The notes: generated by a model from the sequence alone, not told the origin. DNA of 64,000 nucleotides from a virus (IMGVR_UViG_3300026484_000248:34711-98710); one strand, 5' to 3'; counted from the stretch's first letter, positions 7,827 to 64,000 are shown. Made by a program: numbers and translations.

Positions 7827-8344
7827 TGGGAGTTATTAATGAATTATTAGATACTTTAGGTATGGGCGCTAGGTCCAACAAATATATGGTTAATATTAAT
7901 GGACTAGGAAAAAAATTTGAAGTAGGAAAAATGGGAGATACTTTGGCTAAAAGTACAACTATTCCGGGTAGAAGTTTTAATGAAGTAAGTATATGGAATC
8001 AAGGGAGATTGACAACTATAGCAGGGGATCCTGATTACAGTGGAACTTGGTCAGTTACTTTTAGAGATACAGAAGAACACAAATTAAGAACAATTTTTAT
8101 AGATTGGATGGAATTCATCGGAACAGTTCAGAGAAACGCAAGAGAAGCAAACTCGCATAATGACTATATGACAACTTCACAAGTTAGCCAATTAAGTACA
8201 GTTGATAACAGCGTTACCGCTACTTACGAGTTCTATGATATATGGCCTAAAAGTATTTCTGATAGCTCACTGTCTGATGATGCACAAGATATGTTAGAGT
8301 TTACAGTAGAATTTAATTTTTCTAGTTGGAGTAAAATATGTTAG
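7826..8344 (+). CDS. tail tube protein, T4 gp19-like (paralog 1)
   Basis: The C-terminal block ATYEFYDIWPKSISDSSLSDDAQDMLEFTVEFNFSSW matches the conserved gp19 C-terminus (GLWPTNV..L.WD..N.IQTFEVTLALDYWE); it is about 45% identical to 10183..10707. Confidence 0.7.
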   Translation: MGVINELLDTLGMGARSNKYMVNINGLGKKFEVGKMGDTLAKSTTIPGRSFNEVSIWNQGRLTTIAGDPDYSGTWSVTFRDTEEHKLRTIFIDWMEFIGTVQRNAREANSHNDYMTTSQVSQLSTVDNSVTATYEFYDIWPKSISDSSLSDDAQDMLEFTVEFNFSSWSKIC

Positions 8345-10113
8345 TATTCTTTTAAGAATACTTTATTGCCTGAATCATAAATTTTTCTATAACCGTTGTT
8401 AAACATATTTATGGTTTCAGTAACATCTGGATTAAAGATTTCTAATAATCCTTTTAACTTATGTTTTTGGAACTTGTTTCTAGACCATAGTATGTTTTCT
8501 TTAGGATGGAAATAAAAATAGTTAGGTGTAGTATTATATTTAAAAGTAAAGCCTGATTTTATATAAAAATTACCTGTACTCCATCTTCTATTAGCGTAAG
8601 ATAAAAGACTTTTAGGTTTATATGTTTTCTCGAAGTACTTAAGCATTCTAGAACCTCCACCTTGTATAGTATAACCTTTTTTAGTGCAGAACCTAATAAG
8701 TTCATAATCTATATCTTTATTAAACCTAGGCTTACCAAAAGTCATTATAGACATTAGACTGTCTTCATAATACATCCCTATTTTTATAGAAGAGTTACAG
8801 TATCCCTGCATATGGTTGTCATCAATAAATCTTCTAGCTTCCTTAGTTGGTACTTCTTTTATACTGCATTTTCTAGCTCCTATTTTTTTATTTTTATTTA
8901 ATTTATCTTCTATCATAGAAACCCATATAGACTTTTTATTTTTATCTAACCATTCATTTTCAAATATATGAAATAGTTGTATTCCTTTTTCTTCCGCTAA
9001 CTCCGTCTTTCTAAGATGTTTATTTCTATGTTCTATAGGTTTATTAAACATTGAATGCTTAGAATGACCGAAGCTATGCCACATAAGACCGTTATATTCT
9101 ATAGCAAAATTATGTTCTTTGGAATATAAGTCTAATTCAAGTGGTTTTATTAGTTTTCTATCGTTAATAGTAAAAATATTATTAAATTCTATGTTAATTT
9201 CCTTCTCTTTAGAGAATTTACTTTTAAAAGGTATAGTTAAATCTTTCATTTTCTTATATACAAACGAAGTAGATCTTTTATAATCTACTTTAATAGATTC
9301 TATGTCTATTTTTTCATCCCTCAAATATCTCTCTATTATGATTCTTTTATTGAAAGGTTTCCAATTTATATAACCATCACCCGTACCATTTTTTTTATTT
9401 TTAATTTCTACTATCGCTGCTCTACCTTCCTCTGAGCCAAAATATGTAGTTGCACCATATTTTACTAGGTTATTCGCTGCTCTTTTCTGAGGATTATTAT
9501 AGTTCTCATCACCGTATCTTTCTAGTTTAGTTTTCTTAGCTTTTATAATACTTTCTTCGAGCATTGCAAAGTTTTTTACGCCATATTTTTCCATATTGTT
9601 TAGTTGAGTTTTTAAAGTTCTTTTATTATAGTCTACTTTACTTTTAACTTTGGGTTTTTCTTTGGCGATAGAACATTTTATTTTGCATTTATTATCGCAT
9701 TTATTTTTATAACCTTTCTTAAATGAAATAAAGCTATGTTCTTTTAAACATATCACGCAATATTTGGGTTGATATAAGAGATCGTACACTTCTTTAATTG
9801 AAATATTATACATTTTGACTTTCCTTGAAGAAATCCCTTTACTTTTAGTTAATACTAAATTGATATTTTCTTTAGTAATTTTTATCGATTTTTTCTCTAT
9901 GGCCATTCTGCACTTAGGCTCCCCACAAGTTACTCTGTATCCTTTTTTAAAAGAATTAAAAAGTACATTTTTACCACATACGCACTTAGGGGTACTGGTA
10001 CCGTGGTATATATTATATAGTTCTTTTGTTGTAGTATTAAATTTTTTGTTTACGCCAGGTTTAGGGTTGCCTAAGGAATTAAGTAGATGGTTGTGAATGA
10101 AATTTTTGTCCAT
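8341..10113 (-). CDS. free-standing homing-endonuclease-like protein (N-terminal Cys4 zinc-ribbon repeats + conserved C-terminal module)
   Basis: The track ORF is extended; the likely start is the internal MDKNFIHNHL. It has repeated PKCxCG..FxSFKxGY...C...C modules and KYG..NYNN repeats, and an E-Y-N-G-x-x-W-H motif reminiscent of Vsr/PD-(D/E)xK nucleases. The C-terminal 200 aa are nearly identical to 19646..21274 (ARKCSIKEVPTKEAR..NHMQGY..GGGSRMLKYFEK..SYANRRWSTGNFY). It is inserted between the two tail tube paralogs. Confidence 0.55.
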   Translation of the reverse strand: MDKNFIHNHLLNSLGNPKPGVNKKFNTTTKELYNIYHGTSTPKCVCGKNVLFNSFKKGYRVTCGEPKCRMAIEKKSIKITKENINLVLTKSKGISSRKVKMYNISIKEVYDLLYQPKYCVICLKEHSFISFKKGYKNKCDNKCKIKCSIAKEKPKVKSKVDYNKRTLKTQLNNMEKYGVKNFAMLEESIIKAKKTKLERYGDENYNNPQKRAANNLVKYGATTYFGSEEGRAAIVEIKNKKNGTGDGYINWKPFNKRIIIERYLRDEKIDIESIKVDYKRSTSFVYKKMKDLTIPFKSKFSKEKEINIEFNNIFTINDRKLIKPLELDLYSKEHNFAIEYNGLMWHSFGHSKHSMFNKPIEHRNKHLRKTELAEEKGIQLFHIFENEWLDKNKKSIWVSMIEDKLNKNKKIGARKCSIKEVPTKEARRFIDDNHMQGYCNSSIKIGMYYEDSLMSIMTFGKPRFNKDIDYELIRFCTKKGYTIQGGGSRMLKYFEKTYKPKSLLSYANRRWSTGNFYIKSGFTFKYNTTPNYFYFHPKENILWSRNKFQKHKLKGLLEIFNPDVTETINMFNNGYRKIYDSGNKVFLKEY

Positions 10114-10125
10114 TGTTTTCCTTTT

Positions 10126-10170: not shown

Positions 10171-10182
10171 GGAGGAATACAA

Positions 10183-17635: not shown

Positions 17636-18094
17636 TTACGAACAGCTTTCACAAATATAATTGTCTCCACCTTCTTTTTCTTGTTTTAAATAATAACTTG
17701 TTTTTACTCCTAATTTGAATCCATATAGATGCAATTGAGTTAATTCTAAAAGACTATCGGGTTTTGTGATATAAGTATTAATACTTTGCGCCTGGTCAAG
17801 CCATTTCTGCCTAACTGCTGCATTTTCAATTAAAATAAATTGATTACAACCAAAGCTTCTTTTGTAGAATCTATTATTTATTCTAAAATTTGGAACAAGA
17901 GTCGGTATTGTTTGGGTTCCTTCTTCTTTATAAAAGAAGTCGGCAATTGGTTCTATACTTTCTGTTGCATTACATGCTTTCCCACTTGTATTATGACTTA
18001 TACAACCATTACTTAGTGCATATTCATGCACTTCAGGAACCTTTATATCCCAAGTATGTTCTGTTAATCCATCTGTTATTTTTTTAATTTTCAT
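17636..18094 (-). CDS. nrdA: nrdA fragment 3: C-terminal intein-2 segment (about 35 aa, ..VHEYALSNGCISHN) fused to the NrdA C-terminal extein (TSGKACNATESIEP..HLYGFKLGVKTSYYL..CESCS)
   Basis: The extein aligns with the E. coli NrdA C-terminus (ESIEP, HFYGWKQGLKTGMYYL, terminal Cys pair); the intein blocks F/G end in HN followed by Thr +1; it is in the same frame as 18647..19630. Confidence 0.7.
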   Translation of the reverse strand: MKIKKITDGLTEHTWDIKVPEVHEYALSNGCISHNTSGKACNATESIEPIADFFYKEEGTQTIPTLVPNFRINNRFYKRSFGCNQFILIENAAVRQKWLDQAQSINTYITKPDSLLELTQLHLYGFKLGVKTSYYLKQEKEGGDNYICESCS

Positions 18095-18114
18095 ATATTT
18101 TCCTTTATTATACC

Positions 18115-18372
18115 TTATTGTTCTTGGGAGATTTCAACAATCTCCATATTTTCATCCAAGTCCGCGACTTGAACCCAACCCTCTGAACCATCTTTATATT
18201 TAACAAGTAATTTATGATTAAGTGTGAATTTATAAGAACTTCCATCTTCAAATTCAATTTCCCTAACAGGTTGTTTGCCATTATACCAGATTTTAGTTAC
18301 ATTTTTATCACCAAATCTCGTAGGAATAGTTATTCCCTTTTTTATATATTTACTAACTTTAATTACCTTCAT
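18115..18372 (-). CDS. Hint-domain (intein N-terminal splicing region)-like 85-aa ORF lying between nrdA fragments 2 and 3, in a different frame
   Basis: It has a block-B-like GSSYKFTLNHKLLV (G..h..T..H) and a GWVQVADLDENMEIV segment like intein 1 (GYVQAKELLKTDKL); it has its own RBS and ATG; it lacks an N-terminal Cys. Confidence 0.45.
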   Translation of the reverse strand: MKVIKVSKYIKKGITIPTRFGDKNVTKIWYNGKQPVREIEFEDGSSYKFTLNHKLLVKYKDGSEGWVQVADLDENMEIVEISQEQ

Positions 18373-18646
18373 ATTTTTCCTTTATAATATTTAATACTTC
18401 TTGACTTTTAAAAAATTATTCTCATTACTCCATATTTTAAAAATCTCAAAACTATTATCTTTCGCTAATTTTATTTTTTCATTTTGTATTTTTAAGATTT
18501 CTTCTGAACTTCTTTTACTTTAAGGACATTCCCATTCTTTTATATTTGGATGACAATGAATACATCATAATAATTATATTTAATCATTTTACGCCCACTT
18601 AACTTTATATCCATTTATAAAAATGAAGTAGTAGGCACAATTAAAA

Positions 18647-19630
18647 TCATATATATACTATATCCATACCTTCACAAATTTCCCCTGCTGTTATTTTTAC
18701 TTCTATATTATTTTTTAATATAGTTACTTCTTTATGAGTAGGTATATGCTTAATGTCTCCATTTTCTAAAACAATTCCTATATATTCGGTTTTAAAATCT
18801 AACCATTGTTGGGTTTCTTCATTCATTATTTTATTATAATCTATATTAAAATCATCCATAATATTTTGTAAGGATTTAATGCCTTCATTAGTTTTAATTT
18901 CAGTTTTCATTTCAGAACAGGCGGTTGGAGCTATGGCCATCAGAGCCGCATTTCTTAAACCAGTTACTTTAATTTTTTCTCTTAATTTGTTCCATCTGTC
19001 CATTTTAGGTAGATAATCAGTTAAATTAACTGTTTCTTTATTTGCTAAATCAATTGGTAAAATACCCTCAGCCCATTTTGTTTCGTAGAATTTTTCAAAT
19101 TTGCCTTTTTCCTCTGCTAATTCAGCACTAACTGAAATAATTATATAAGATAAATCATCAAATAATTTGTCTGTTTCTTCTAGTGCCTCTTGTGTATCAA
19201 TAATAATTTCTTTTAACGCTAAGTAATTTGCAAAGTTAAGAACTCCAATACCCAAATATCTATACATTAAGTTTGAATTTTTACCTTCTTTTACTGGATA
19301 GTTAGCAACATCTACAGTATTATCGAGTCCTCTTACAAGAGTTCTAATTAATTGCCATTTTTGTCCTTCATCCATATAAAACCATCTTTCAAGATTTACT
19401 GAACTAAGGTTACATAAAGCAATTTCACCTGCTGTATATCTTTTAACAATTCTTTTTTCTCCATTTTCCATTGTAAATAATTCTTCATTAATTAATTCCG
19501 ACGGTCGTGATGGAAGTACTATCTCTGTGCAGTTATGTACCAGTATATCATTTGCATAAAAATTATGGTTATCTTCTACAGTAATATCATATACAGGCAT
19601 TTCCTCTTCTAAATATTCTATTTTAATCAT
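18647..19630 (-). CDS. nrdA: nrdA fragment 2: C-intein-1 (MIKIEYLEEEMPVYDITVEDNHNFYANDILVHN) + middle extein (CTEIVLPS...LMAIAPTA, about 204 aa) + N-terminal piece of intein 2 (CSEMKTEIKT..., about 90 aa, ends TGA)
   Basis: The extein matches NrdA CLEIALPT..LCTLS.NL..LGIGV.NFA..GILPID..GLRN..ALMP; intein block F/G lies before the catalytic Cys; the start codon has an RBS. Confidence 0.75.
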   Translation of the reverse strand: MIKIEYLEEEMPVYDITVEDNHNFYANDILVHNCTEIVLPSRPSELINEELFTMENGEKRIVKRYTAGEIALCNLSSVNLERWFYMDEGQKWQLIRTLVRGLDNTVDVANYPVKEGKNSNLMYRYLGIGVLNFANYLALKEIIIDTQEALEETDKLFDDLSYIIISVSAELAEEKGKFEKFYETKWAEGILPIDLANKETVNLTDYLPKMDRWNKLREKIKVTGLRNAALMAIAPTACSEMKTEIKTNEGIKSLQNIMDDFNIDYNKIMNEETQQWLDFKTEYIGIVLENGDIKHIPTHKEVTILKNNIEVKITAGEICEGMDIVYI

Positions 19631-19645
19631 CTTTTTTCCTTTATT

Positions 19646-21274
19646 TTATTTATATTCTTTAACATAAACCTTGTTGCCTGAATCATATATTTTTCTATAA
19701 CCATTATTATGCATATTTTCTGCTTCAGTAACATCTGGATTAAAAGTTTCTAATAATCCTTTTAACTTATGTTTTTGGAACTTATTTCTAGACCATAGTA
19801 TGTTTTCTTTAGGATGGAAATAAAAATAGTTAGGTGTAGTATTATATTTAAAAGTGAAGCCTGATTTTATATAGAAATTACCTGTACTCCATCTTCTATT
19901 AGCGTAAGATAAAAGACTTTTAGGTTTATACGTTTTCTCGAAGTACTTAAGCATTCTAGAACCTCCACCTTGTATAGTATAACCTTTTTTAGTGCAGAAC
20001 CTAATAAGTTCATAATCTATATTTTTATTAAACCTAGGCTTACCAAAAGTCATTATAGACATTAGGTTGTCTTCATGATACATTCCTATTTTTATAGAAG
20101 AGTTGCAGTATCCCTGCATATGGTTATCATCAATAAATTTTCTAGCTTCCTTAGTTGGTACTTCTTTTATACTACATTTTCTAGCTCCTATTTTTTTATT
20201 TTTACTTAATTTATCTTCTATCATAGAAACCCATATAGATTTTTTATTTTTATCTAACCATTCATTTTCAAATATATGGAATAGTTGTATTCTTTTTTCT
20301 TCACAAGCTTCAGTTTTAATAAGATGGTAGTTTTTATTTTTAAATTTATTAGAATGCCAATATAAACCATTATATTCAATGGCAAAATTATATTCTTCAG
20401 AATACATATCTAATTCATAAGGTTTTATTATTTTTCTATTATCATATATAAATAAATCCTTAAATAGGGCCTTCATATTATCTGACACCTGTCTACCTAT
20501 TCTTGAAACACTAGAAGCATAAAAACTCATGTTTTTAAAAGCATTATAAGTGCAATTAAAATATTCACATGCAGTATAAATATCAAAATTTTTATTTAAT
20601 ACAAAGTGTTTAATTATAAATGTTTCATTAAAATTATTTAAATTATTAAAATGTTTTCTGGAAGAATTTTTATTTCCACTAAAATCTTTTTTAAAAGAAT
20701 CTAATTGAGCATAACTAGAAACACCATATTTTTCCATCATAGTATTATGAATTTTCTCTTTATTATTATAGTTTTTATCACCATATTTTTCTAATTTAGT
20801 TTTCTTGCTTTTTTCTATATTATTATAGTTTTTATCACCATATTTTTCTAATTTAGTTTTCTTGCTTTTTTCTATATTATTAATACTTGACTGATGGGTA
20901 TTATTAGATATCATAGTATCTTGTGCTTTTTTTCTTGATTCTTTAGACTGTGCTTTTTTAATCACCTTATTATGAATAGTCTTATCCTGAAAAACACTTA
21001 CATATCCGTACTTTTCTAACATTGTTTGTTGAGTCTTTTTAATTCTATTAAGTTTACTACATTCTTTACAAGTTTTATTATACCCTTTATTTAATGAAAT
21101 AAATCGTTTTTTATTGCCACAAGAACATAAACTATCATTATTATAAAAGTCCCATATGAACTTACTAGGTTCTTTCATATAATTTTTTTCTTCTAATGTA
21201 AAAGTGTGATTATTATATCTTCTGCTTTTTTTATTCCAAATAAGATCTATTTTTTCTTTTAATTCTTTTGTCAT
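19646..21274 (-). CDS. free-standing homing-endonuclease-like gene inserted inside nrdA intein 1 (same family as 8341..10113 and 57414..59135)
   Basis: It has N-terminal Cys4 zinc-ribbon modules, a 57-bp tandem in-frame duplication (KTKLEKYGDKNYNN x2), EYNGLYWHS, and a C-terminal module about 90% identical to 8341..10113; it is in the same frame as both flanking nrdA pieces but separated from them by TAA codons. Confidence 0.6.
   Translation of the reverse strand: MTKELKEKIDLIWNKKSRRYNNHTFTLEEKNYMKEPSKFIWDFYNNDSLCSCGNKKRFISLNKGYNKTCKECSKLNRIKKTQQTMLEKYGYVSVFQDKTIHNKVIKKAQSKESRKKAQDTMISNNTHQSSINNIEKSKKTKLEKYGDKNYNNIEKSKKTKLEKYGDKNYNNKEKIHNTMMEKYGVSSYAQLDSFKKDFSGNKNSSRKHFNNLNNFNETFIIKHFVLNKNFDIYTACEYFNCTYNAFKNMSFYASSVSRIGRQVSDNMKALFKDLFIYDNRKIIKPYELDMYSEEYNFAIEYNGLYWHSNKFKNKNYHLIKTEACEEKRIQLFHIFENEWLDKNKKSIWVSMIEDKLSKNKKIGARKCSIKEVPTKEARKFIDDNHMQGYCNSSIKIGMYHEDNLMSIMTFGKPRFNKNIDYELIRFCTKKGYTIQGGGSRMLKYFEKTYKPKSLLSYANRRWSTGNFYIKSGFTFKYNTTPNYFYFHPKENILWSRNKFQKHKLKGLLETFNPDVTEAENMHNNGYRKIYDSGNKVYVKEYK
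20764..20877. repeat. 57-bp tandem in-frame duplication inside endonuclease gene 19646..21274
   Basis: tattatagtttttatcaccatatttttctaatttagttttcttgcttttttctatat is repeated twice and encodes IEKSKKTKLEKYGDKNYNN x2. Confidence 0.8.
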
Positions 21275-21322
21275 TCTTTTGATATCCTGGCAATTATTTT
21301 ATATTTTACTAACTTTGGGCAT

Positions 21323-44002: not shown

Positions 44003-44014
44003 TTATTTATATAC
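44003..44014 (-). promoter_or_regulatory. late promoter TATAAATA (minus strand) for gp13-like gene
   Basis: The minus strand reads gtatataaataata, about 20 nt upstream of the ATG at 43985. Confidence 0.4.
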
Positions 44015-50272: not shown

Positions 50273-50366
50273 ATAGATATAGTTATTGCAAATGAAGCAG
50301 CGCGTACTCAGGCGGGAGCATTAGCATCAGATAGAGCGGATCAAAATTACGGTTCGGTTGCGGCGT
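50273..50366 (+). CDS. tail sheath protein small exon (..IDIVIANEAARTQAGALASDRADQNYGSVAA; boundaries approximate)
   Basis: It is a GC-richer coding island between intron B3 and A4; the frame is open only here; it ends AA followed by TAA like the other exons. Confidence 0.45.
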
Positions 50367-51676: not shown

Positions 51677-51877
51677 AATATAAAGTGTATCTGTTTCATT
51701 GGAGCAAGGTTCGAAGATGTTGTTGGTTTACAAAGTGCTAAAATAGTTGAAAATCTTATTAAAGATGCTCAAACTGGTGAATTAAATAGTGGTAATACTG
51801 CTAACTCATTCAACGCATTTTTTGGTAACTACAAATATCAATACGACAAATTTAATGATAAATTCAGATGGGTTTTA
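51677..51877 (+). CDS. tail sheath protein exon (NIKCICFIGARFEDVVGLQSAKIVENLIKDAQTGELNSGNTANSFNAFFGNYKYQYDKFNDKFRWVL; boundaries approximate)
   Basis: It is the only open frame between intron 4 and intron 5; it is flanked 3' by TAA TAG and an A element. Confidence 0.45.
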
Positions 51878-52257
51878 TAATAGAAGCTCCGGTTTATAGT
51901 AATATAAACTTGAAAACGAATCTAATTGCTGGAACATCTTGTTAAACTTATATACCACAATATACCTGAAAAGAGTATATGACGGTTAGAAAAATATAAG
52001 GTAGAGACAATCAGCAGCCAAGCTACTAAGTTATATAAGGTAGATATAATATGTAGAAGGTTCAACGACTATTCCTGAAGAGGAAGTACAGTGCAAGTTT
52101 AATGGCGCTGGAAATGGTTCGCATCCCGAAACGGATGAAGATATAGTCTAAACTATGTGGGGACATATAGTGGTATATAAAAACAAGGACCAAAAAAAGT
52201 TTTTATATAAACCAGATCTTAAAGTTGCGTTTAAGATTGGAATATTTTTTATAATTC

Positions 52258-53520
52258 TTATTTCTCAAAAGAAGACAAGAGCTCTTCTTTTGTTATACTA
52301 CATTTTCTATTTTTAGATAAATTTTTGCCAGACACCAACATCTCCAAATTACATATATTACCTATAATATTAGCAGGCATATTTTCTTTAAATCCCTGAA
52401 AAATAGAGTACTTATGATCTAGATGATAATTGTCTACTTGTATGCCTCTTTTTTCTATGTTTTCGAGGACACTTAAATCATTTTGATTTGTATATCTCCA
52501 AACCAACCTAGTATAATCTTTAAAATCTTTTACTTGATCCTCAGTTATCCAATTACCTAGTTTTTCATTAGTTTCTTTCATCTTTAATGCACTTCTTTCA
52601 TAACTGTTTAGGCCATTTTCGTCTATGTTGTTTAGTTTTGATACTTTCGCTTTTAATGCCCCCCTTTCGTAACTGTTTAATCCTTTTTCGTCTATGTTGT
52701 TTAGTTTTGTTTGGTGTTTCTTTTGTAATGCAGATTTAGATGTGCATTTTTTTCTAGTGCTTTCCATTTGAAAGGAATTTTCAACTCCATATTTAAGTAA
52801 CATTGTTTGTTTTCGTAATTCTAAGTTTAATGAATGTTTTGAAGCGCACTGTCTTGAGCAATATTTTTTATATCCTTTTGCTACGGATACAAATTTTGAT
52901 TCCTTATTACAAAATAAACATTTATTTTTTTCTTGTGTATTCGTATTTTCCTTAAAGAAAATATGATAAATTTTTTCTTTAATTAATTTTTGTTGTAATA
53001 ATTTATGATTATTAATATATGGCATATATAATTTATATTCTTGTTCTAAATAATTTTTATAAAACCATTTTTTATTTAAGCGTTGTGTCTCTATTATAGT
53101 TCTACTATTGTTTGTACCAATTAAATGGTTTAAAACAAGTTCTTTAAATGAAATTAATGCTTTATTTTTCTTTATGCCTTTATTTCTTCCTTTTGTGTTA
53201 AATTTTGCTGAACAAGAAAGATTACAAAATTTCTTATAGCCCTTATTTACATCTATAAACTTTGTTTTTTCATCACAATATTTACAAGTAGAATATATAT
53301 AGTTTCTATCATTGGGATTTTCTCCAGAACTATTTTGTAATTTTTCTTCTAACAATTTATTTTCTCTCATAAACACAAAAAGTTTTTCTTGATTTTGAAA
53401 AATTTCAGAAAATTCTAGGGAATTTTTTATAAAAAATTCTTTGTTTAGTCTTTTAGTATTTATCTTGTTTTTTACATTATATAAATAATTTTGTATTATA
53501 TAAATTTTATTGGTAATCAT
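52258..53520 (-). CDS. HNH homing endonuclease (C-terminal HNH YHLDHKYSIFQG..N..NLEMLVSGKNLSKNRK; N-terminal zinc-ribbon repeats), encoded antisense within intron 5
   Basis: It has Cys4 modules (KFIDVNKGYKKFCNLSCSAKF; KFVSVAKGYKKYCSRQCASKH) and a 66-bp tandem in-frame duplication (KLNNIDE.GLNSYER.ALK x2) at about 52585-52720. Confidence 0.6.
   Translation of the reverse strand: MITNKIYIIQNYLYNVKNKINTKRLNKEFFIKNSLEFSEIFQNQEKLFVFMRENKLLEEKLQNSSGENPNDRNYIYSTCKYCDEKTKFIDVNKGYKKFCNLSCSAKFNTKGRNKGIKKNKALISFKELVLNHLIGTNNSRTIIETQRLNKKWFYKNYLEQEYKLYMPYINNHKLLQQKLIKEKIYHIFFKENTNTQEKNKCLFCNKESKFVSVAKGYKKYCSRQCASKHSLNLELRKQTMLLKYGVENSFQMESTRKKCTSKSALQKKHQTKLNNIDEKGLNSYERGALKAKVSKLNNIDENGLNSYERSALKMKETNEKLGNWITEDQVKDFKDYTRLVWRYTNQNDLSVLENIEKRGIQVDNYHLDHKYSIFQGFKENMPANIIGNICNLEMLVSGKNLSKNRKCSITKEELLSSFEK
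52585..52720. repeat. 66-bp tandem in-frame duplication inside HNH gene 52258..53520
   Basis: It encodes KLNNIDE(K/N)GLNSYER(G/S)ALK.K twice. Confidence 0.7.
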
Positions 53521-53580
53521 TTTGTTGGTCCTTAATTTTTACTTTTACTTATATAATCAAAAAGAATTATAAAAAAATTG

Positions 53581-53800
53581 TTCTGTAGCAGGTGATGTTG
53601 CTGGTCTTAGAGCTGATACAAATACTTCATTAAATACTTGGTGGGCATCTGCTGGTCTTGATAGAGGTCAAATAAAGAATGCACAAAAAATTTCTTTCAA
53701 TCCTAATTTGGGGCAAAGAGATTTCTTATATAAAAATAAGATTAATCCAATTGTTTCTTTTCCGGGTCAAGGGAATGCTATAAAATATTGTAGCGCAGCA
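53581..53800 (+). CDS. tail sheath protein exon (..SVAGDVAGLRADTNTSLNTWWASAGLDRGQIKNAQKISFNPNLGQRDFLYKNKINPIVSFPGQGNAIKYCSAA; boundaries approximate)
   Basis: It is an open frame between intron 5 and intron 6 with the sheath C-terminal-domain flavour (NPIVSFPGQG); it ends AA followed by TAG and an A element. Confidence 0.5.
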
Positions 53801-54150
53801 TAGTAATATGTTGTATAAATGAATCGAATTGCTGGGACATCTTGAAGATATAGTACACCACAATAATCAAGAAATTAGATTATGAAGGTTAGAAAAGATG
53901 CTATATAGAGAAAATCAGCAGCCAAGCTACTAAGTCCAATGGATAAGTAGAAGGTTCAACGACTATTCCGAAAGGAAGTAGGAATCAAGTGATTCCGAAG
54001 CGGTTCACATCCTAATATTAAGTTAAGGATGAAGATATAGTCTGACCTATGTGGAGACATATAGAAAATTAAATAAATGAAAAAATAAGGGATTTAATTT
54101 GGTTGTAAGTAACGATTACAATTTAACATATTTGAGTATGGGGTCAAAAG
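53801..54150 (+). mobile_element. group I intron 6 (compact, ORF-less; A 53825-53937, B 53953-54065)
   Basis: A and B blocks are adjacent; the 3' end is tentatively placed at ...TATTTGAGTATG by analogy with other copies. Confidence 0.55.
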
Positions 54151-54329
54151 ACTTTACAGAGTAAACCAAGTGCGTCTTTGAAAATGGTTTATATACATAA
54201 TTATAAAATTGGGGAGTTTTATAATTATGCAGAAGCAAGTAATAACTTTCTATTTATAAAGAATGATAAAATAAGCGTGATTACTTTCTCTTTTTACGCA
54301 AAAATAATCAGGCAGATATAGTATATAAA
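54151..54329 (+). CDS. tentative tail sheath exon (..GQKTLQSKPSASLKMVYIHNYKIGEFYNYAEASNNFLFIKNDKISVITFSFYAKIIRQI)
   Basis: It is a 60-codon open frame immediately after intron 6; it ends with GGCAGATAT|AGTATATAAAAATG, resembling the 5' junction of intron 6 (GCGCAGCAT|AGTAATATG); there is no homology support. Confidence 0.3.
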
Positions 54330-54573
54330 AATGATTAAAAAATGTAATGATTATAAAGTAATTAGTTGTAAATGTTAATTTCAAGACAAAATCGTTCTAA
54401 AATTAGAAATTATTAAGTAATATTTTGTTATAATAATTTTACTTTTATAAATACTATTATATATTTTAATTATGATATTTAGGGGTTTTGTCAGGCTCAC
54501 TCTAAATATCATAATTAAGATATAAAAAAATTAAACGAGCCTGACAGCCGTTTATAATTAACGGAGATTAACA

Positions 54574-55917
54574 ATGAGGCAAAATTTTATCAATTTATAT
54601 ACTGCAGAATTAAAAAGATTAAAAGATTCAGACGTACTAAATTTTGCTGACTTTAACAAAGATAAAATTCAAGCTATCAAAAAAATGCTGATTTTTTTCA
54701 ACACAACATCAGATAACGAGCTTAATAAATTGCCTTCTATCATATTAAAATTCAACAAAGATAATTATATTTCTAATCACGAGCTAAAATTTATACAAAC
54801 AAGATACTATCATCTAATTAAACATAATTCCATCAAAAATTCTAAGTCAAACAAAATTAACAAATCTTATTTATTTGGTTTTGTTGAAGAAACAATTAAA
54901 GGTTTTTGTGTTATAAAGGGTAATAAATTGCATAAAAATAATTCAGTTTATGAAAAAACAAAAGAATGTAAAAATTTTATGAGTAAAATAGTACATATGC
55001 TAAAGAGTTATGAAGATATCATTAAAGAACAAGACGAGAAACTTTTTATTAGAAGTATTAAGAAATTCAATAATGCTAAAATTCAACGTATAGAGCCAAA
55101 TAAAGATTACAAAGCACCGTTCTATTTTGAAAAAGATAGAATAGAAGCCATAAATTATCTACAAAATACAAATTTACTTATTCAAATACCGTCAAAAAAT
55201 GCTAACGGGAGATTATATAACCGATACTGGAATAAATTAAAAAAAGAAGACAAAATAAATTTACTGCCTTCTTATACTTCTTATGATATTAATACATCTT
55301 TATATCAATTTTTGTTGCTGGAGGCAAAGAAGCATAATTTAGGATACAGCAATGTAAAACACTATATAGAAAACAAACAAGAATTAAGACAATTCATCTC
55401 TAAAGATACATTTAATAGTTTGCCTTATCATATAGAAAAAGGATATAAAATTTATGGCCAACAGTATATACTAGATTTAAGTGAAGAAATAAAATGTATA
55501 TTAAATACTATATTAAAAGGTGATTCATTATTTAGTATGTATGAATCATGGGAATCAACGATTATACAAGATTTTATAGATAAAAATGGTTTAGATAACT
55601 ATGTTACAAACCATGATGAAATTCTAGTTCATAGTAAAGAGAAAGTATCTTATGTGCCTGGTATATTTGGTATAGAAACAGCCGAAGAAAGAAAAGAAAT
55701 AGTTAAGGTATATAATAGCAAAACTCAAGAAGATTTTATAAGAGAAAGAGAAGAAAGAATAAAAGAACAAGATAGAAGAAGTATTATTATTCATTACAAA
55801 GGTGTCTTAAAGAGAACAAAGAATTTTTATAAGAGACAAGGATACATATATAAAATTGAATCATTAAAGGTTTCTTTTAATGAAAATTTATTAACTGAAT
55901 CATTATTAATTTTCTAA
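54574..55917 (+). CDS. intron-associated ORF of unknown family (447 aa, Lys/Asn-rich)
   Basis: It is preceded by a strong hairpin GTCAGGCTCAC...CGAGCCTGACAGCC (54490-54548) and an RBS GGAG; no HNH, GIY-YIG or LAGLIDADG motif is recognisable by eye. Confidence 0.4.
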   Translation: MRQNFINLYTAELKRLKDSDVLNFADFNKDKIQAIKKMLIFFNTTSDNELNKLPSIILKFNKDNYISNHELKFIQTRYYHLIKHNSIKNSKSNKINKSYLFGFVEETIKGFCVIKGNKLHKNNSVYEKTKECKNFMSKIVHMLKSYEDIIKEQDEKLFIRSIKKFNNAKIQRIEPNKDYKAPFYFEKDRIEAINYLQNTNLLIQIPSKNANGRLYNRYWNKLKKEDKINLLPSYTSYDINTSLYQFLLLEAKKHNLGYSNVKHYIENKQELRQFISKDTFNSLPYHIEKGYKIYGQQYILDLSEEIKCILNTILKGDSLFSMYESWESTIIQDFIDKNGLDNYVTNHDEILVHSKEKVSYVPGIFGIETAEERKEIVKVYNSKTQEDFIREREERIKEQDRRSIIIHYKGVLKRTKNFYKRQGYIYKIESLKVSFNENLLTESLLIF

Positions 55918-55918
55918 A

Positions 55919-56236
55919 TTAATCTTCTAACGACAAAAATCCTTCATTACCCAAATAACATAAGAAATCTCTATAATCTAATTCATCTAGCCTTCCTTCT
56001 CTTTTCATATAATTTAGGTAAGTAAACATCAATTCCCTACTATATAAATTATAATCTTCTGGGTTCCTTGGGTTTTTTCCTGATTGTAAAAGTAAAAGCA
56101 ATTCTTTTAACCTTAATGAATTTTCTTCATCTATATTTGAATTCGAGTCTATATTTTTCATTATTTCTTTAATTTTTTTATCACTTATATTCTTTTCTAG
56201 ATTAAAAATATAATCCTCCATTTCGTTTTCTAACAT
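55919..56236 (-). CDS. hypothetical small protein encoded antisense in intron 7 region
   Basis: It is a 105-aa ORF convergent with 54574..55917. Confidence 0.3.
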   Translation of the reverse strand: MLENEMEDYIFNLEKNISDKKIKEIMKNIDSNSNIDEENSLRLKELLLLLQSGKNPRNPEDYNLYSRELMFTYLNYMKREGRLDELDYRDFLCYLGNEGFLSLED

Positions 56237-56639
56237 TATAAATCCTTTTTTAATATTTATAAATAATTATAAGTTATGTAGAAATATATAATGTGTTCTT
56301 TGTAAAAAGAAGCCTTTCATTATCTGTCAGGCGCACTTAAAACCCATTGAATTGCTGGGACATCTTGAAGATATAGTACACCACAATAATCAAGAAATTA
56401 GATTATGAAGGTTAGAAAAGATACTATATAGAGAAAATCAGCAGCCAAGCTTCTAAGTTATAGTATATAATACGAAGAAGGTCCAACGACTATCCTGAAA
56501 AGGAGTAGGAAACAAGTGTTTCCGAAGTGGTGGGAATTATTATATTATCTCCCCAGATAAATTTTATAATAATTGTGATATAGTCTGAACTTCTAAGGAG
56601 ACTTAGAGAATTTGTTTAACGAACAAATGTAACATAATG

Positions 56640-56986
56640 TTGACAGAATAAACTAATTGTTCTGTATAAATCCATTGAATTGCTGGGACATCTTGTTAGA
56701 CTTTAGTACCACAATATATCTGAAAAGAGTATATGAAGGTTAGAAAAACTAAAGGTAGAGAAAATCAGCAGCCAAGTTGTTAAGTAGAACTATTATTTAA
56801 TAATTCTATATACAAAAGGTTCAGAGACTATCCGAAAGGAGTAGGAACTAAGCAGTTCCGAAGTGGTGGACATCCAAAAGGGTGAAGATATAGTCCAATC
56901 TTTATGGAGACATAAAGCAAAAATTAATTAATTAATGAATAATTAATTTTTGATATTTGTGTTGCGAACAAATATTAATATGAATG
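56640..56986 (+). mobile_element. group I intron 8 (compact; A 56676-56785, B 56818-56920; terminal ...ATATGAATG)
   Basis: It has B variant GGTTCAGAGACTATCCGAAAGGAGTA; only about 37 nt separate it from intron 7, with stops in all frames, so a coding exon 8 is doubtful. Confidence 0.5.
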
Positions 56987-57110
56987 AAATGTTAGAGGTT
57001 TATTTAATACTTTAGAGCGAGCAATTAGTCGTATGGCTAAATATTACCTGAATTATAACGGGTACGGAATTAGTAATAATACCGAAGATTGTAACTATAA
57101 GCTAGTTGCA
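56987..57110 (+). CDS. tail sheath protein exon (..NVRGLFNTLERAISRMAKYYLNYNGYGISNNTEDCNYKLVA; boundaries approximate)
   Basis: It is a GC-richer open frame between introns 8 and 9; it ends A followed by TAG and an A element. Confidence 0.45.
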
Positions 57111-59408
57111 TAGATATAAATCGAATTGCTGGGACATCTTAATAGGTTGTAGATAGGATATTATCTCGAAAGAAGATAACGAACCCTTAAAATTCTACAG
57201 ATAGAGACAATCAGCAGCCAAGCTTCTGTAAAATGAAGAAGGTTCAACGACTATTCCGAAAGGAAGTACACTAGAAGTCTAGTGGAAGTGGTTTACATCC
57301 TAAAAGTTAGGATGAAGATATAGTCTAATCTTTATGGAGACATAAAGCAGAAAAATTAATTAATTTTATAATATAATTATATTATAAAAACTTACTCAGG
57401 AGCAGTAAAAAAAATGAAAAAAGAAGAAATTCAAAGAAACTTATTAGATATTAAAGGAAATTTAAAATTTACTAAATTAAAAAAAGAATATCCTGGGATA
57501 TCCAAAGAAGATTGTTATAAAATCTTCTTTAATAAAACTGGTTTATGTCTAAAAGGACATAAACTAAAATTTATATCTTTTAAACAAGGCTATAGAGAAT
57601 GTAAAGTTTGTCAGGACTTAAATAACTTCTATAGTATTAATAATCTAAAAGAATACAGCAAAAATAACTTATTTACAAGTACGCAAATAAAAAAAATTTT
57701 CGAATATCATAATCTAAGCACAAAAGACATATATTTATGGAATAATAGTAAAAAATATTGCCCTATATGCAACAAAGAAAGAAAGTTTATAAATCAAGTA
57801 GGTTATGCTAAAACTTGTTCAGCTAAATGTGGAGCTAAACTTTTAAGACCAAAATTAAGCCAAGAACAAGAAAAAGAAAGACAGTTAAAGAAACAGAAAA
57901 CTTGTATAGAGAAGTATGGGGTAAAATGTACACTTGAATTAATAGATAATTCAGGCCCAAATAATGCTATGGCCAAAGCAGATTCTATAGGTAATATTAA
58001 GAAAAAGAAAACTATGCTAGAAAGGTATTATGTAGAATATCCTACTCAAAATAAAGATATATTAAAGAAAATTAAAGAAACTAGGAACAAAAACAAAAAG
58101 GATGATACTTTTGGGTATCATCATACTAGGAGACATTTTACTAATATAGGAGATTTTAATGAAGATTTTATAAAAGTAAATTTTATAAAAGAATATTTCC
58201 TTGAAAAGGCTTTTGAGGAATATTTCAATTGTAGTAGGAATACTACTTTAAGAATAAAAAGATTCTTTAATATGTGGGATGAACATTTATCCTTTCCGGA
58301 ACAAATAATTAAAAAACATCTTAAAGATTTTATTAAGACAAAGAAAGTAATACCTCCATATGAAATAGATTTTTATAACGAAAAGTTAAAATTTGGTGTA
58401 GAAGTTCATGGAGACTACTGGCATTCAATAGAATCAGGAACTGATAAAAATTATCATAAAATGAAGTCAGATATGTGCAAAGAAAAGGGAGTTGTCCTTT
58501 ATCAATTTTTCGAAAATGAAATTATAAATGATGAAGATATTGTAGCCTCAATGATCTCGTCTAAGATGGGTAATAATAGAAGGGTGTACGCCAGAAAATG
58601 TATTATAAAAGCGGTAAATGTAAAAGACTCTAAGGATTTTTGTAAGAAAACACATTTGCAAGGTTACGCAAAGTCTAAATTTAAGTTGGGTTTATACTAT
58701 AATAATGAATTAATACAATTAATGACAATAGGTAAACCCAGATACACTAAAGAAGCAGAATATGAAATAATAAGATTTAGTTCGAAATTAAATACCACTG
58801 TAGTGGGGGGATTTTCAAAACTATTAACTTATTTTGAGAGAAAATATAAACCCAAAAATATTATATCTTATGCCAATAGAAGATGGAGCGAAGGAGATGT
58901 GTATGAAAAGACAGGTTTTACTAAAATTAGAATAACTCCTCCTGGTTTTAGGTATTTTAAAGGAGGTAAATACTTTGCAAGGGAAGAGCTTCAAAAACAT
59001 AAATTAGAAGGAAAACTTAATATCTATAATAACAAAATTAGCACTAAAGAAAATATAAAAAATAACGGATACTTAACACTATATGATAGCGGGAATATAG
59101 TATATATAAAAAAAGGAGAAGATATTGAAAGATGATAAACAATATAGACTGAGATTAAAAATACCATTAGTCAACAAATGTACAGAAGATATTAATTTGA
59201 CTATTTTAGTTTCCAGTTTGTTGAAAGAATACAGTAAAAATAAGAATTTAAGAAGCAAGATTTTAAAGAACATAAATAAATAAATATATAAATAAATATA
59301 TAATTTATAATAACATTACTTAATAATACAGAGGAAGTTATAAAAAACGGTCTAAGGTACAATAGTATATTAATTTTTCGGTATTTGTTTAACGAACAAA
59401 TATGAATG
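57111..59408 (+). mobile_element. group I intron 9 (A 57122-57232, B 57241-57360 nearly identical to B1; endonuclease ORF after P9; terminal hairpin ATTTGTTTAACGAACAAAT followed by ATGAATG)
   Basis: Core blocks are present; the 3' end ...TATTTGTTTAACGAACAAATATGAATG is shared with introns 7 and 8. Confidence 0.6.
57414..59135 (+). CDS. intron-encoded homing-endonuclease-like protein of the zinc-ribbon + shared C-terminal module family (third member)
   Basis: It has a CLKGHKLKFISFKQGYRECKVC zinc ribbon, EVHGDYWHS, and the ARKCIIKAVNVKDSKDFCKKTHLQGY...VGGFSKLLTYFERKYKPKNIISYANRRWSEGDVY module, about 45% identical to 8341..10113 and 19646..21274. Confidence 0.6.
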   Translation: MKKEEIQRNLLDIKGNLKFTKLKKEYPGISKEDCYKIFFNKTGLCLKGHKLKFISFKQGYRECKVCQDLNNFYSINNLKEYSKNNLFTSTQIKKIFEYHNLSTKDIYLWNNSKKYCPICNKERKFINQVGYAKTCSAKCGAKLLRPKLSQEQEKERQLKKQKTCIEKYGVKCTLELIDNSGPNNAMAKADSIGNIKKKKTMLERYYVEYPTQNKDILKKIKETRNKNKKDDTFGYHHTRRHFTNIGDFNEDFIKVNFIKEYFLEKAFEEYFNCSRNTTLRIKRFFNMWDEHLSFPEQIIKKHLKDFIKTKKVIPPYEIDFYNEKLKFGVEVHGDYWHSIESGTDKNYHKMKSDMCKEKGVVLYQFFENEIINDEDIVASMISSKMGNNRRVYARKCIIKAVNVKDSKDFCKKTHLQGYAKSKFKLGLYYNNELIQLMTIGKPRYTKEAEYEIIRFSSKLNTTVVGGFSKLLTYFERKYKPKNIISYANRRWSEGDVYEKTGFTKIRITPPGFRYFKGGKYFAREELQKHKLEGKLNIYNNKISTKENIKNNGYLTLYDSGNIVYIKKGEDIER

Positions 59409-59670
59409 TAAATGGTTTGAATTCAATGATGTATATACAAGAAATAGATTTGTTGCTACTATTAAACCTTTCTTAGAAAGTGTTAAAGCTGGTAGAGGAG
59501 TTTATGACTTTTATGTTAGATGTGATGAAACTAATAATACACCACAAATTATTGATGCTAATCAGTTTGTTTGTGATATTGCTGTTAAACCTACAAGAGT
59601 TGCAGAGTTTATTACTCTAAATTTTGTGGCCATAGGAACTGGCGTAGAGTTCAGCGAGATTTTTGTATAA
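59409..59670 (+). CDS. tail sheath protein terminal exon (..KWFEFNDVYTRNRFVATIKPFLESVKAGRGVYDFYVRCDETNNTPQIIDANQFVCDIAVKPTRVAEFITLNFVAIGTGVEFSEIFV*)
   Basis: It has the conserved sheath C-terminal signature (..VKP.R.AEFI.L.FV..G.GV.F); TAA at 59668-59670. Confidence 0.7.
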
Positions 59671-60098: not shown

Positions 60099-60899
60099 TT
60101 GATTAAGAAAAATGGGTCGTTAAATCCGAATATAATGAAACAAATTTATACAAGTGCTAAAGATGTGTATCTGATATATTACGATATAGAAGTCCCCAAA
60201 TGTGTATGTGATAAAGAGCTAAGTTTTATTAGTTTCAAAGCAGGGTTTGTTAAACTTTGTAACTCCTGTTCTAGAAAAGACCCAGAAAGAAAAGCCAAAG
60301 TTTTAGAATCCCTAAAGAAAACTAATCTAGAAAGATATGGTGTTGAACATTACTTTAATAAAAAACAAGGCCAAAAAACAAGGATAGAACGATATGGTGA
60401 GCCCTTTTATAACAACCGTGAAAAAGCAGTCAAAACTTGTAAAGATAACGATTTATATGCTAAAGGTAGGCAAAAATTCAAAGATAGTTTAACCGAAGAA
60501 GAATATAAGGAACATTATAAAAAAGTATTTGAAAAAGTTTATGAAACTAAACTAGCTAAATATGGCGATAGGAACTACAACAACTCACTAAGTGGTCAAG
60601 AAGGTAAAAGGAAAACTATGGAATCTCAAGGATTATGGATTCCTCTCGACCAAATATCAGATTGGGAGCTTTATAAAAGAACTGTAAGAAAACAAACAGA
60701 AATTAATTATTCTCTTTATAAAGATAAAATAAACCCAAGTAATTATAATAGAGTTCTTTGTGGGAAAGACGGTCATCAACTCGATCATATTATTTCTGTA
60801 CAAGAAGGATTTTTAAATAATGTTCCTTCTTATATAATAGCTTCAGAAGATAATTTGCAGATGCTTACTTGGTCTGAAAATAGAGCCAAATGGGCATGA
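60099..60899 (+). CDS. HNH homing endonuclease (N-terminal PKCVCDKELSFISFKAGFVKLCNSC zinc ribbon, KYG repeats, C-terminal HNH GHQLDHIISV..NLQMLTWSENRAK)
   Basis: The motifs can be read directly; it lies between the sheath end and the portal gene. Confidence 0.65.
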   Translation: MIKKNGSLNPNIMKQIYTSAKDVYLIYYDIEVPKCVCDKELSFISFKAGFVKLCNSCSRKDPERKAKVLESLKKTNLERYGVEHYFNKKQGQKTRIERYGEPFYNNREKAVKTCKDNDLYAKGRQKFKDSLTEEEYKEHYKKVFEKVYETKLAKYGDRNYNNSLSGQEGKRKTMESQGLWIPLDQISDWELYKRTVRKQTEINYSLYKDKINPSNYNRVLCGKDGHQLDHIISVQEGFLNNVPSYIIASEDNLQMLTWSENRAKWA

Positions 60900-63038: not shown

Positions 63039-63103
63039 AAAATAAGTTATAAATAAAAGTATATAAGGGGTTATACTCTTATAATTTTAATTCAAGTGAA
63101 TGT

Positions 63104-64000
63104 TATGACAAAGATAGAAATTCAAAATATTATAAATCCTAGAACTAATAGACTCCAATTATCAAAACTAACAATATCACTAGAAAAGGCTTACTGCATA
63201 TATAATAGTATAGAGACGCCTCCTTTATGTAAATGTGGTAAATCTTTACCTTTTATTAACTTTAAAAGTGGTTATAGAAAAAGTTGTGGTAATAGCAAAT
63301 GCAAAAATAAAAAACTTACAATGGAACCTAAAATATTAACAGATAAAGTTATAAACGAAATATTCAAAGGAAAAGGTTTTAATTATAAGTTGGCTCAAAA
63401 GTACGGTATAACCCAAAAAGATTGTTATGATTATAAGTTTCCTGGTAAAGAGATGTGTTCCTGTTCAACAAAGAAAAAATTTATAAATTTTAAAATAGGT
63501 TACAGACAAGTCTGTAATTGCAAAAAATCAGTGACATTAACTAAAGAGTTTATAATTGAAAATAACGGGGTTATTAATAATAAACTGAATCCCTCTTTTA
63601 TGAGAAAATATGACGTTACTGTAAATGAAGTATATTCAGTGTATAACAATATCTCTATACCCAAATGTCAATGTGGCGAGGAGTGTAAAGTATCTATCTT
63701 TAGTAAAGGACCTTCTTACTATTGTGGCAGGAAAGAATGTAAAAATTCTATATTAACTAGAGATTGGATATTATTTCCTGAAAATATTAATAGAGACTTT
63801 TGGATTAAAAACTTTTCTCAAGATGGATTTATAGATGTTTCTAAAGTTCATGAATATCATAATTTATCTTATACAGGAATTTATTTGAGAATTAAAGAAT
63901 TTAATCTTAAAATTAAAAAAGTAAATAAAGCGGAAGCTTTACTCTTAAACTTAGTGCATGGAGCAGAACTTAATACCAGGAAAATTATTACGCCTTTTGA
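63104..64000 (+). CDS. homing-endonuclease-like protein with four N-terminal Cys4 zinc-ribbon modules (partial, continues beyond window)
   Basis: It has the repeated PLCKCGKSLPFINFKSGYRKSCGNSKC / EMCSCSTKKKFINFKIGYRQVCNCK / PKCQCGEECKVSIFSKGPSYYCGRKEC modules; TATAAATA lies at 63048-63055. Confidence 0.5.

Follow-up and report, generated by a model that had tools for sequence, protein, structure and literature searches.

We analysed a 64,000-nucleotide stretch of viral DNA (IMGVR_UViG_3300026484_000248:34711-98710; this whole stretch is called the window below) that carries four large genes of one family. Three complete open reading frames (ORFs) and a fourth one cut by the window end are very probably genes of Hef-type homing endonucleases, and this is the best explanation of the data as a whole. 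It is based on family membership, domain folds, residue conservation, genomic settings and empty sites in relatives, all observed in this analysis. Nuclease and homing activity are assigned to the window proteins by analogy with members of the family described in the literature. The four genes and their parts are as follows (aa, amino acids).

8341..10113, minus strand: Hef1, 590 aa, PHROG 3339 at E=1.2e-114; free-standing between tail-tube paralogues
Parts of Hef1: zinc ribbons 9910-9984 and 9673-9759; KYG repeats 9493-9588; Vsr-like domain ~8944-9195; Mom-like GNAT domain ~8344-8883
19646..21274, minus strand: Hef2, 542 aa; between the split-intein halves of nrdA
Parts of Hef2: zinc ribbon 21059-21127; KYG repeats 20702-21013 (Pfam DUF7487); Vsr-like domain 20255-20473; Mom-like GNAT domain 19649-20194
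57414..59135, plus strand: Hef3, 573 aa, PHROG 3339 at E=1.5e-102; in group I intron 9 of the tail-sheath gene, 3' of the ribozyme core
Parts of Hef3: zinc ribbons 57546-57611 (degenerate, C..H) and 57759-57830; Vsr-like domain 58305-58526; Mom-like GNAT domain 58581-59132
63105..64000, plus strand: Hef4, cut by the window end; three zinc-ribbon units 63228-63302, ~63453-63518 and 63666-63740

The three complete ORFs exist as proposed in an initial annotation of the window, with the motifs E-Y/V-N/H-G-x-x-W-H, ARKC and ANRRW occurring once in each. All three match the PHROG 3339 'homing endonuclease' profile over nearly their full length (E from 1e-102 to 1e-118). Campylobacter phage genes annotated as Hef (IBB_35, CP220) share about 40% identity with them across 91% of the length (tblastn), in agreement with the initial pointer to the 'Hef' proteins of Campylobacter and T4-like phages. 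The final residues of Hef4 align with the start of the Vsr-like module, and residues 24-325 of Hef1 match 63165-63998 (tblastn, E=8e-15). This gene, which starts at 63105 and not at 63104, had been listed as one of three HNH-type genes sharing the N-terminal module; the other two, at 52258 and 60099, do contain the module and are HNH by motif only.

Relatives of Hef are present in 417 phage records, and the window copies are less than 60% identical to any of them. The Mom-like part alone matches genes annotated as 'Hef' or 'Hef-like homing endonuclease' in Campylobacter, Shigella and Klebsiella phages. The common C-terminal module, initially estimated at about 200 residues, is indeed present in the three ORFs; however, it consists of about 290 residues and two domains. 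In the last 286 residues Hef1 and Hef2 are 83% identical, and Hef3 and Hef2 are 44% identical. An exhaustive HMMER search found the module in 21,469 clusters (50% identity) at E<=1e-3 and in 9,538 clusters at E<=1e-30. It is C-terminal in all of the best 150 matches listed, following N-terminal regions of widely differing length.

Hef from phage U5 was reportedly named by Sandegren and co-workers in 2005. The name stands for 'homing endonuclease-like function'; in this T-even-like phage the gene reportedly occupies the place of mobE, between nrdA and nrdB, and has nrdB as its target. Hef-like genes constitute a third group of free-standing homing endonuclease genes (HEGs) in T4-related phages, and the phage enzymes of Hef type have been placed in the Vsr-like 'EDxHD' family with the prototype I-Bth0305I (Taylor et al. 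2011, PMC3239194). The window proteins are homologous over the full length to U5 Hef and to the products of Hef-like genes from Campylobacter, Acinetobacter, Dickeya and Shigella phages, with the same Vsr-like plus Mom-like module. Similarly to the known genes, there are several copies per genome, with free-standing ones near tail-tube and ribonucleotide reductase (RNR) genes. However, the known genes are described as free-standing in the literature consulted, whereas one window copy is intron-encoded and one lies between split-intein halves.

The density of such genes had been considered extraordinary. It is not: single Campylobacter Fletchervirus-type genomes of 132-135 kb contain up to 11 places matched by the Mom-like domain query, and thus four Hef copies in 64 kb are not exceptional for a phage of this kind.

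Domains of the Hef module

Homologues of the module were collected at E<=1e-5 (381 sequences) and 76 were aligned; residues are numbered below within the 286-aa C-terminal module. The profile of these 76 homologues matches I-Bth0305I in the PDB (3r3p_A, E=3.2e-6 over 97 profile positions), which bears out the initially noted likeness to Vsr nucleases. Residues D196 and H213, mutated in the 3r3p crystal, align to D33 and H51 of the module. Among the homologues D33 is conserved in 76/76, and H51 and E44, the acidic 'x', in 75/76 each. The E-Y-N-G-x-x-W-H-S region is predicted to be a Vsr-like 'EDxHD' nuclease domain. As in I-Bth0305I and other EDxHD enzymes (Dassa 2009, PMC2677866; Taylor 2011, PMC3239194), the domain has the conserved D, acidic 'x' and H, the protein is bipartite with a separate N-terminal DNA-binding region, and the genes occur in group I introns and between split-intein halves. 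On the other hand, I-Bth0305I is a protein of 266 aa with the nuclease domain at its end and DNA binding by NUMOD/HTH motifs, whereas Hef adds a GNAT domain of about 180 aa and uses zinc ribbons and KYG repeats.

Some observations do not fit this assignment well. The first E of EDxHD is absent in Hef2 and is E in 54/76 homologues. The last D is not clearly matched; the aligned region has a conserved H61...K64. Pfam DUF559 matches Hef3 below the cut-off (E=0.0027, 18 bits versus 20.6). As to sensitivity, a phmmer search of the PDB with full-length Hef2 found neither 3r3p nor Mom; 3r3p was reached with the 76-sequence profile and Mom with a fold search.

The C-terminal 180 residues or so are modelled as a Mom-like GNAT domain. 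[quoted passage not shown] The AlphaFold2 model of the domain has pLDDT 96 and pTM 0.91, and its best Foldseek match in the PDB is Mom of phage Mu (8bv8, E=7e-8); the GNAT fold is closest to that of Mom. Many homologues of the Hef module have a precomputed match to the Pfam Mom family PF25680. The module is thus not unclassified, as had been thought, and consists of two known domains. A match to a non-nuclease fold had been named as an argument against the endonuclease interpretation, and such a match was found for this last part; however, it is preceded by a nuclease domain with conserved catalytic residues, and the Hef proteins therefore remain predicted nucleases.

A G-G-A/G stretch is seen in the alignment of the Hef GNAT domain to 2bsw; we take it to be the cofactor-pyrophosphate site (GNAT motif A). 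The glycine-rich loop resembles that of coenzyme A-using GNATs, unlike Mom. Mom itself moves glycine from Gly-tRNA to N6 of adenine in double-stranded DNA; its R111 and S124 are essential, D149, R151, H58 and Y159 are important, and the alanine mutant of D149 is strongly impaired (PMC13219725). The corresponding positions of the Hef module in the 76 homologues are listed here.

Mom H58: module H129, H in 76/76
Mom R111: module R169, R in 76/76
Mom S124: module S183, S in 70/76
Mom R151: module R205, R in 74/76
Mom Y159: module Y212, Y in 74/76
Mom D149: module N203, N in 56/76 and D in 20/76; N in every window copy

Strong constraint on the domain is evident. Similarly to Mu Mom (8bv8; PMC13219725; PMC7261163), it has the GNAT fold, conserved equivalents of H58, R111, S124, R151 and Y159, and an insertion between the last strands. 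Unlike Mu Mom, to which it is about 16% identical, it has N in place of D149 and is not a stand-alone protein but part of a fusion with a nuclease and a DNA-binding array. The following points weigh against the comparison with Mom or against its catalytic consequences. The residue mapping comes from a weak hhalign alignment (E=0.061), backed by the fold match. PF25680 matches Hef1 below the cut-off (E=4.6e-5, 23.6 bits versus 27.1) and does not match Hef2 and Hef3. Finally, asparagine at the D149 position of all window copies weakens the case for catalysis.

The chances that the Mom-like domain is a working transferase, modifying adenine at or near the recognition site, are about even. Another possibility, which deserves serious consideration although we would not quite favour it, is that the domain is catalytically dead and serves only for DNA binding, base flipping or dimerisation. 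The replacement of D149 is what one would expect in this case, both I-Bth0305I and Mom act as dimers, and DNA binding alone could account for the retention of several conserved residues, which are basic. However, the catalytic serine and the tyrosine are kept, as are the histidine and the two arginines, and the G-G-A/G stretch occupies the GNAT cofactor-pyrophosphate position, as judged from the alignment to 2bsw and partly from the general features of motif A.

If the domain is active, a more specific suggestion can be made, which is tentative and, in our estimate, rather unlikely. Hef might be bifunctional, with the Mom-like domain modifying adenine in its own recognition sites by acyl or aminoacyl transfer, so that the HEG-bearing genome is immune and unmodified co-infecting genomes are cut. 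A homing endonuclease would then work by the logic of restriction-modification, and the retention of the Mom catalytic residues in more than 9,500 clusters would be explained.

Insertion sites of the Hef genes

Hef1 is situated between two tail-tube genes transcribed from the opposite strand.

7826-8344 and 10180-10707, plus strand: paralogous gp19-like tail-tube genes, duplicated also in the relatives L018-L020

In L018 and L019 the two tube genes are adjacent without Hef, and in L020 a Hef gene follows the second tube gene. Hef4 directly follows the portal gene, and a full-length Hef gene is found in the same place in L004.

Hef2 lies in a fractured nrdA gene.

17636..23014, minus strand: nrdA in three ORFs (21323-23014, 18647-19630 and 17636-18094), split by two split inteins
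Intein 1, minus strand: IntN-1 21326-21610; spacer of 48 nt; Hef2; IntC-1 19532-19630
Intein 2, minus strand: IntN-2 18650-18847; IntC-2 17990-18094

The three ORFs match the PHROG RNR profile in consecutive ranges. At the end of the ORF 21323-23014 is an N-intein (CLKGDT...TPEH), which Pfam Hint/PT-HINT matches at aa 466-559; the ORF 18647-19630 starts with a C-intein (the C-terminal end of Pfam Intein_splicing at aa 2-33) that terminates in LVHN and is followed by CTEIV. The intein catalytic residues Cys1, T-x-x-H of block B, terminal H-N and the +1 Cys are present, and the extein junction would join SSNL to CTEIV. In L011, L012, L014 and L015 nrdA is uninterrupted, with neither inteins nor Hef. 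In the fractured genes described by Dassa et al. 2009 (PMC2677866), an ORF with the N-extein and IntN is followed by a spacer of 27-51 nt, an endonuclease ORF, and an ORF with IntC and the C-extein. The layout around Hef2 fits this description, as all ORFs are on one strand and the spacer of 48 nt is within the range. However, the hairpin described by the same authors before the endonuclease gene was not found (fold of 21265-21335, minus strand, -0.8 kcal/mol, z=0.94). The 550-nt gap between the halves of intein 2 contains an additional Hint-like ORF of 85 aa (~18115-18372) and a stop-riddled Vsr-like nuclease end (~18400-18560).

Between positions 8442-8981 (minus strand) of Hef1 and ~19720-20259 (minus strand) of Hef2 the DNA is 97% identical; this tract is about 540 nt long and takes in the greater part of the Mom-like domain. 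Identity in the flanks of this tract falls to 50-80%, and the N-terminal arrays of the two genes differ (windowed identity of the pairwise alignment). This indicates a probable recent gene conversion or exchange of segments between copies 11 kb apart, and provides direct evidence of module movement between Hef genes. The presence and absence of Hef and HNH genes among the relatives, as seen from the compared sequences, is the pattern expected of mobile endonuclease genes. Mobility of the family is thus supported by the group I intron, the split-intein and the empty-site settings.

The following mechanism is proposed. The N-terminal array of one to three Cys4 zinc ribbons and KYG repeats (DUF7487) would read a long target. 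The Vsr-like domain would cut a HEG-less allele near its own insertion site during co-infection, and recombinational repair would then copy the Hef gene into the cut allele. In the sheath gene Hef would travel together with a group I intron, in nrdA it would sit between the halves of a split intein, and in the tail-tube region and after the portal gene it would move as a free-standing gene. The Mom-like domain, if active, would modify adenine at or near the recognition site and protect the carrier genome; if not, it would serve in DNA binding or dimerisation, without catalysis. A point against this scheme is that we infer the role of the Mom-like domain and the targets, the latter being guessed from position alone.

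Fusions of Mom with nucleases of the restriction-endonuclease fold have been described in jumbo phages and read as restriction-modification-like conflict systems (Iyer et al. 2021, PMC7824862). They probably belong to the same protein family, as RaK2, K64-1 and MIJ3 are among the Hef matches. No paper linking Hef to Mom or GNAT was found in the literature searched. Accordingly to the role predicted for the jumbo-phage fusions, Hef could be a single-chain weapon, with the Mom-like domain modifying adenines throughout the phage's own DNA and the nuclease degrading unmodified DNA of the host or a competitor, with no link to the insertion site. Conservation of the Mom-essential residues across the family and the presence of several paralogues per genome agree with such a role. 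However, one Hef gene of the window is in a group I intron and one precisely between split-intein halves, an arrangement known from Vsr-like HEGs; the presence or absence of each copy among relatives is site-specific; and the variable sequence-reading N-terminal arrays suit long specific targets. Thus the settings argue for homing, and we consider the weapon hypothesis improbable, although the two readings are not mutually exclusive.

That the C-terminal module represents a novel class of homing endonucleases, as suggested initially, is very improbable: indeed, none of the three large ORFs matches a GIY-YIG, LAGLIDADG or HNH Pfam family, Hef1-3 reach the Pfam cut-off only with DUF7487 on the N-terminal repeats of Hef2, and NCBIfam has no model for any HEG-like protein of the window, but the nuclease domain matches the solved EDxHD domain of I-Bth0305I, and the family is annotated in PHROGs and hundreds of phage genomes and has been in the literature since 2005-2011, from the naming of Hef to its placement in the EDxHD family (PMC3239194). 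The Hef family is known, large and already named.

The tail-sheath gene and other endonuclease-like genes

The homing interpretation of Hef3 involves its host gene, which encodes the tail sheath (gp18). The exons were placed using the intron-less homologue from L004 as a guide.

46218..59670, plus strand: tail-sheath gene, 10 exons and 9 group I introns; 11.1 kb of intron versus 2.3 kb of exon
Exons 1-5, plus strand: 46218-46413, 46986-48253, 49838-49855, 50273-50341, 51686-51873
Exons 6-10, plus strand: 53581-53781, 54135-54175, 56640-56649, 56987-57049, 59415-59670
Introns 1-5, plus strand: 46414-46985, 48254-49837, 49856-50272, 50342-51685, 51874-53580
Introns 6-9, plus strand: 53782-54134, 54176-56639, 56650-56986, 57050-59414

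The spliced ORF of 769 aa is collinear with the 770-aa protein of L004 (74.7% identity, one gap). At all nine junctions the exon ends in T, the intron ends in G, and the reading frame is restored; around the junction of exons 9 and 10, an intron-less allele of the L004 type would read ...AAATATTACCT|GTTTGAATTC... The shortest exons are 18 nt (49838-49855) and 10 nt (56640-56649). Seven introns match RF00028 with 73-91 bits, and two, whose cores are split by ORF-sized insertions, with 40-43 bits; the core of intron 9 (57044-57347) scores 87.6 bits. The Rfam scan of the whole window found six introns on the plus strand and two more below the threshold. It missed intron 6, which scores 90.6 bits when searched alone, and so undercounts introns. 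The intron that contains Hef3 is a bona fide group I intron, and self-splicing is predicted for all nine. The nine ribozyme cores are paralogous (70-90% identity), which suggests that one intron family may have spread to nine sites of the same gene. The introns are absent from L004 and L005, whereas L003 has only the first one, and in L006 approximately the first two sites are occupied.

Intron 4 contains HNHa3, intron 5 contains HNHb1 in antisense orientation, intron 7 contains ORF447 and intron 9 contains Hef3. Intron 2 has an ORF-less insert of 1.2 kb, and intron 1 a remnant of an HEG found intact in L003. Essential phage genes interrupted by group I introns that bear HNH and other HEGs are also known from Twort and the Jug phages. 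Three introns in one Twort gene were reportedly considered remarkable (Landthaler & Shub 1999), and Jug phages have about 18 introns per genome, with genes in two or three pieces (PMC12880540). In contrast, a single coding sequence of 2.3 kb in the window is interrupted by nine introns, all of one paralogous family, which is more than in any case found in the literature searched.

Given the fragmented genes and dense HEGs, one might suspect a chimeric metagenome assembly, as the contig is metagenomic and has no near-identical genome in the phage collection (megablast of 57414-63038 matched nothing); this can be practically discarded, since nine junctions restore one conserved 769-aa ORF with U at -1 and terminal G throughout, the split-intein halves and exteins are in frame, the ORF447 segment is identical in an independent Logan assembly, and the relatives L003 and L006 have some of the same insertion sites. 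Indeed, the source contig is present in at least two independent assemblies.

Other HEG-like genes and remnants of the window are the following.

42216..43145, minus strand: HNHa1, free-standing HEG with the motif HHHILP...N...H; PHROG 655 'homing endonuclease', E=2.8e-9
44007..45128, minus strand: HNHa2, free-standing HEG; PHROG 12434 'HNH endonuclease', E=2.9e-9; absent in L004
50558..51481, plus strand: HNHa3, PHROG 655, E=3.3e-15; in sheath intron 4, splitting the ribozyme core into 5' and 3' parts
52258..53520, minus strand: HNHb1, 420 aa; zinc ribbons 53212-53286 and 52846-52920, one KYG repeat; antisense in sheath intron 5
60099..60899, plus strand: HNHb2, 266 aa; zinc ribbon 60201-60269, three KYG repeats; DUF7487, E=0.0011
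45749..45966, minus strand: HNHa-type remnant, a 52-aa ORF with a frameshifted continuation; tblastn with HNHa1-3, E from 2e-10 to 3e-7
46436..46555, plus strand: remnant of a zinc-ribbon-type HEG leader in sheath intron 1; tblastn with residues 1-37 of Hef4, 47.5% identity, E=1.8e-5

HNHa1 is located between the genes of a Dda-like helicase and a head-tail adaptor, and is absent from this place in L004 and L006. HNHa2 is 37-55% identical to its paralogues HNHa1 and HNHa3. The core pieces of intron 4 are at intron positions 37-154 and 1158-1342 (sub-threshold Rfam match 51390-51634, 39.7 bits). HNHb2 is free-standing between the sheath and portal genes; a 52%-identical homologue occupies the same place in L003, and the gene is absent in L004. 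The L003 homologue of sheath intron 1 contains an intact ORF with zinc ribbons and an HNH-like end. This ORF, related to HNHb1, is sense-oriented, unlike antisense HNHb1 in intron 5.

The HNH label of HNHb1 and HNHb2 comes from the motif H-x-D-H...N...N seen by eye: the C-terminal motifs are H-L-D-H...N...N at ~52309-52425 and H-Q-L-D-H...N...N at 60774-60881. The isolated C-termini of both proteins have no Pfam HNH match even at E=10. Their PHROG matches are to families with unknown function, and for HNHb1 there is also a weak match to 3339. The N-termini of the HNHa proteins have no Pfam match even at E=10, and phmmer searches of the PDB with these N-termini and the HNHb C-termini were empty.

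At least 11 copies of the zinc-ribbon unit C-x-C...F-x-S-F-x-x-G-Y...C-x(2-5)-C are distributed over six ORFs, five of which also contain KYG-x3-Y-x-N repeats. The N-termini of the Hef proteins match the ORFs 52258-53520 and 60099-60899 (tblastn, E from 1e-9 to 5e-6), and the initial idea of a DNA-binding cassette shuffled between nuclease types is well supported by these matches. The N-terminal cassettes appear to be common to different types of nucleases. The N-termini of the Hef homologues also vary, with precomputed Pfam matches to DUF7487, DUF723, HTH families and zinc ribbons. The combination of varied N-terminal domains with a constant C-terminal module speaks for a catalytic unit that stays fixed while the recognition cassettes are exchanged.

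Nine HEG-like genes are apparently intact (four Hef, three HNH of PHROG 655/12434, and two with zinc ribbons and HNH-like ends), and there are two clear remnants. Doubtful traces, two or three in number, include the Vsr-like relic at ~18400-18560 and the ORF-less insert of sheath intron 2. The initial count of at least 13 genes or remnants can thus be reached only by generous counting. An EndoVII-like ORF (35649-36173), considered as a possible F-CphI-type HEG, was not counted, as it resembles an ordinary gp49 homologue.

One more intron ORF is of a different kind.

54574..55917, plus strand: ORF447, 447 aa, orphan, in sheath intron 7
55919-56236, minus strand: small convergent ORF, accompanying ORF447 both here and in the independent Logan contig

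ORF447 has no Pfam, PHROG or NCBIfam match, and only 5 homologues besides itself were found in 5.8 billion proteins. Its AlphaFold2 model, of moderate confidence (pLDDT 75), has no fold match in the PDB. The relatives are free-standing genes of phage contigs, in many cases not on the same strand as their neighbours, and the copy in L005 adjoins the sheath gene. ORF447 is a candidate mobile gene of unknown type, with a behaviour resembling that of a homing gene. It is a possibility that ORF447 founds a new family of homing enzymes. Kinship with family A polymerases, considered because of the motif GR.YN...D...YQFL...NHDE, was dropped, as T7 DNA polymerase was found only at E=5.

The host phage and implications

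The window is AT-rich (26-33% G+C) and contains T4-like structural and replication genes, encoding the portal, tail tube, sheath stabiliser, RNR, ligase and helicases. The portal protein matches Pfam Portal_T4 with E=2e-119 and is 44% identical to those of Campylobacter phages. The genome hosting the Hef genes is that of a T4-like myovirus, distantly related to Campylobacter phages. Besides the tube genes, one more pair of paralogous structural genes was observed.

5575-6267 and 6510-7205, minus strand: paralogous Cys-rich proteins of 230 aa, duplicated also in L018-L020

Several other features were noted. A complete M17 leucyl aminopeptidase gene (24577-25860, minus strand; Pfam PF00883, E=1.7e-93), unusual for a phage, adjoins the head maturation protease gene. 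Small ORFs at 30213-31504 and 40263-40550, all on the minus strand, share the C-terminal motif (N/Y/F)-P-E-Y-(F/G)-(I/L) and may constitute a family of small early proteins. A tRNA-like cloverleaf at 14583-14656 (minus strand) scores 46.5 bits with Rfam and is not called by ARAGORN. Its anticodon loop, ACUUAAA, has a C at position 33, which is unusual, and could contain the anticodon UUA, that of an ochre suppressor.

The window is a compact catalogue of the ways in which a single endonuclease family can settle in genes: it is present within an intron, between the halves of a split intein and in free-standing form, with empty sites in relatives and a probable recent gene-conversion tract. The sheath gene is an extreme case among phages, and bears on the spread of introns within a gene and on the minimum length of an exon spliced on both sides. 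What is of residual interest, then, is this fragmented gene, the orphan intron ORF, and the conserved Mom-like domain of a validated family of homing endonucleases. The literature on Hef/EDxHD homing enzymes and that on Mom fusions and restriction-modification describe the same protein in different terms. The structure, essential residues and tRNA-dependent chemistry of Mom were published in 2026, which makes the role of the Mom-like domain directly testable.

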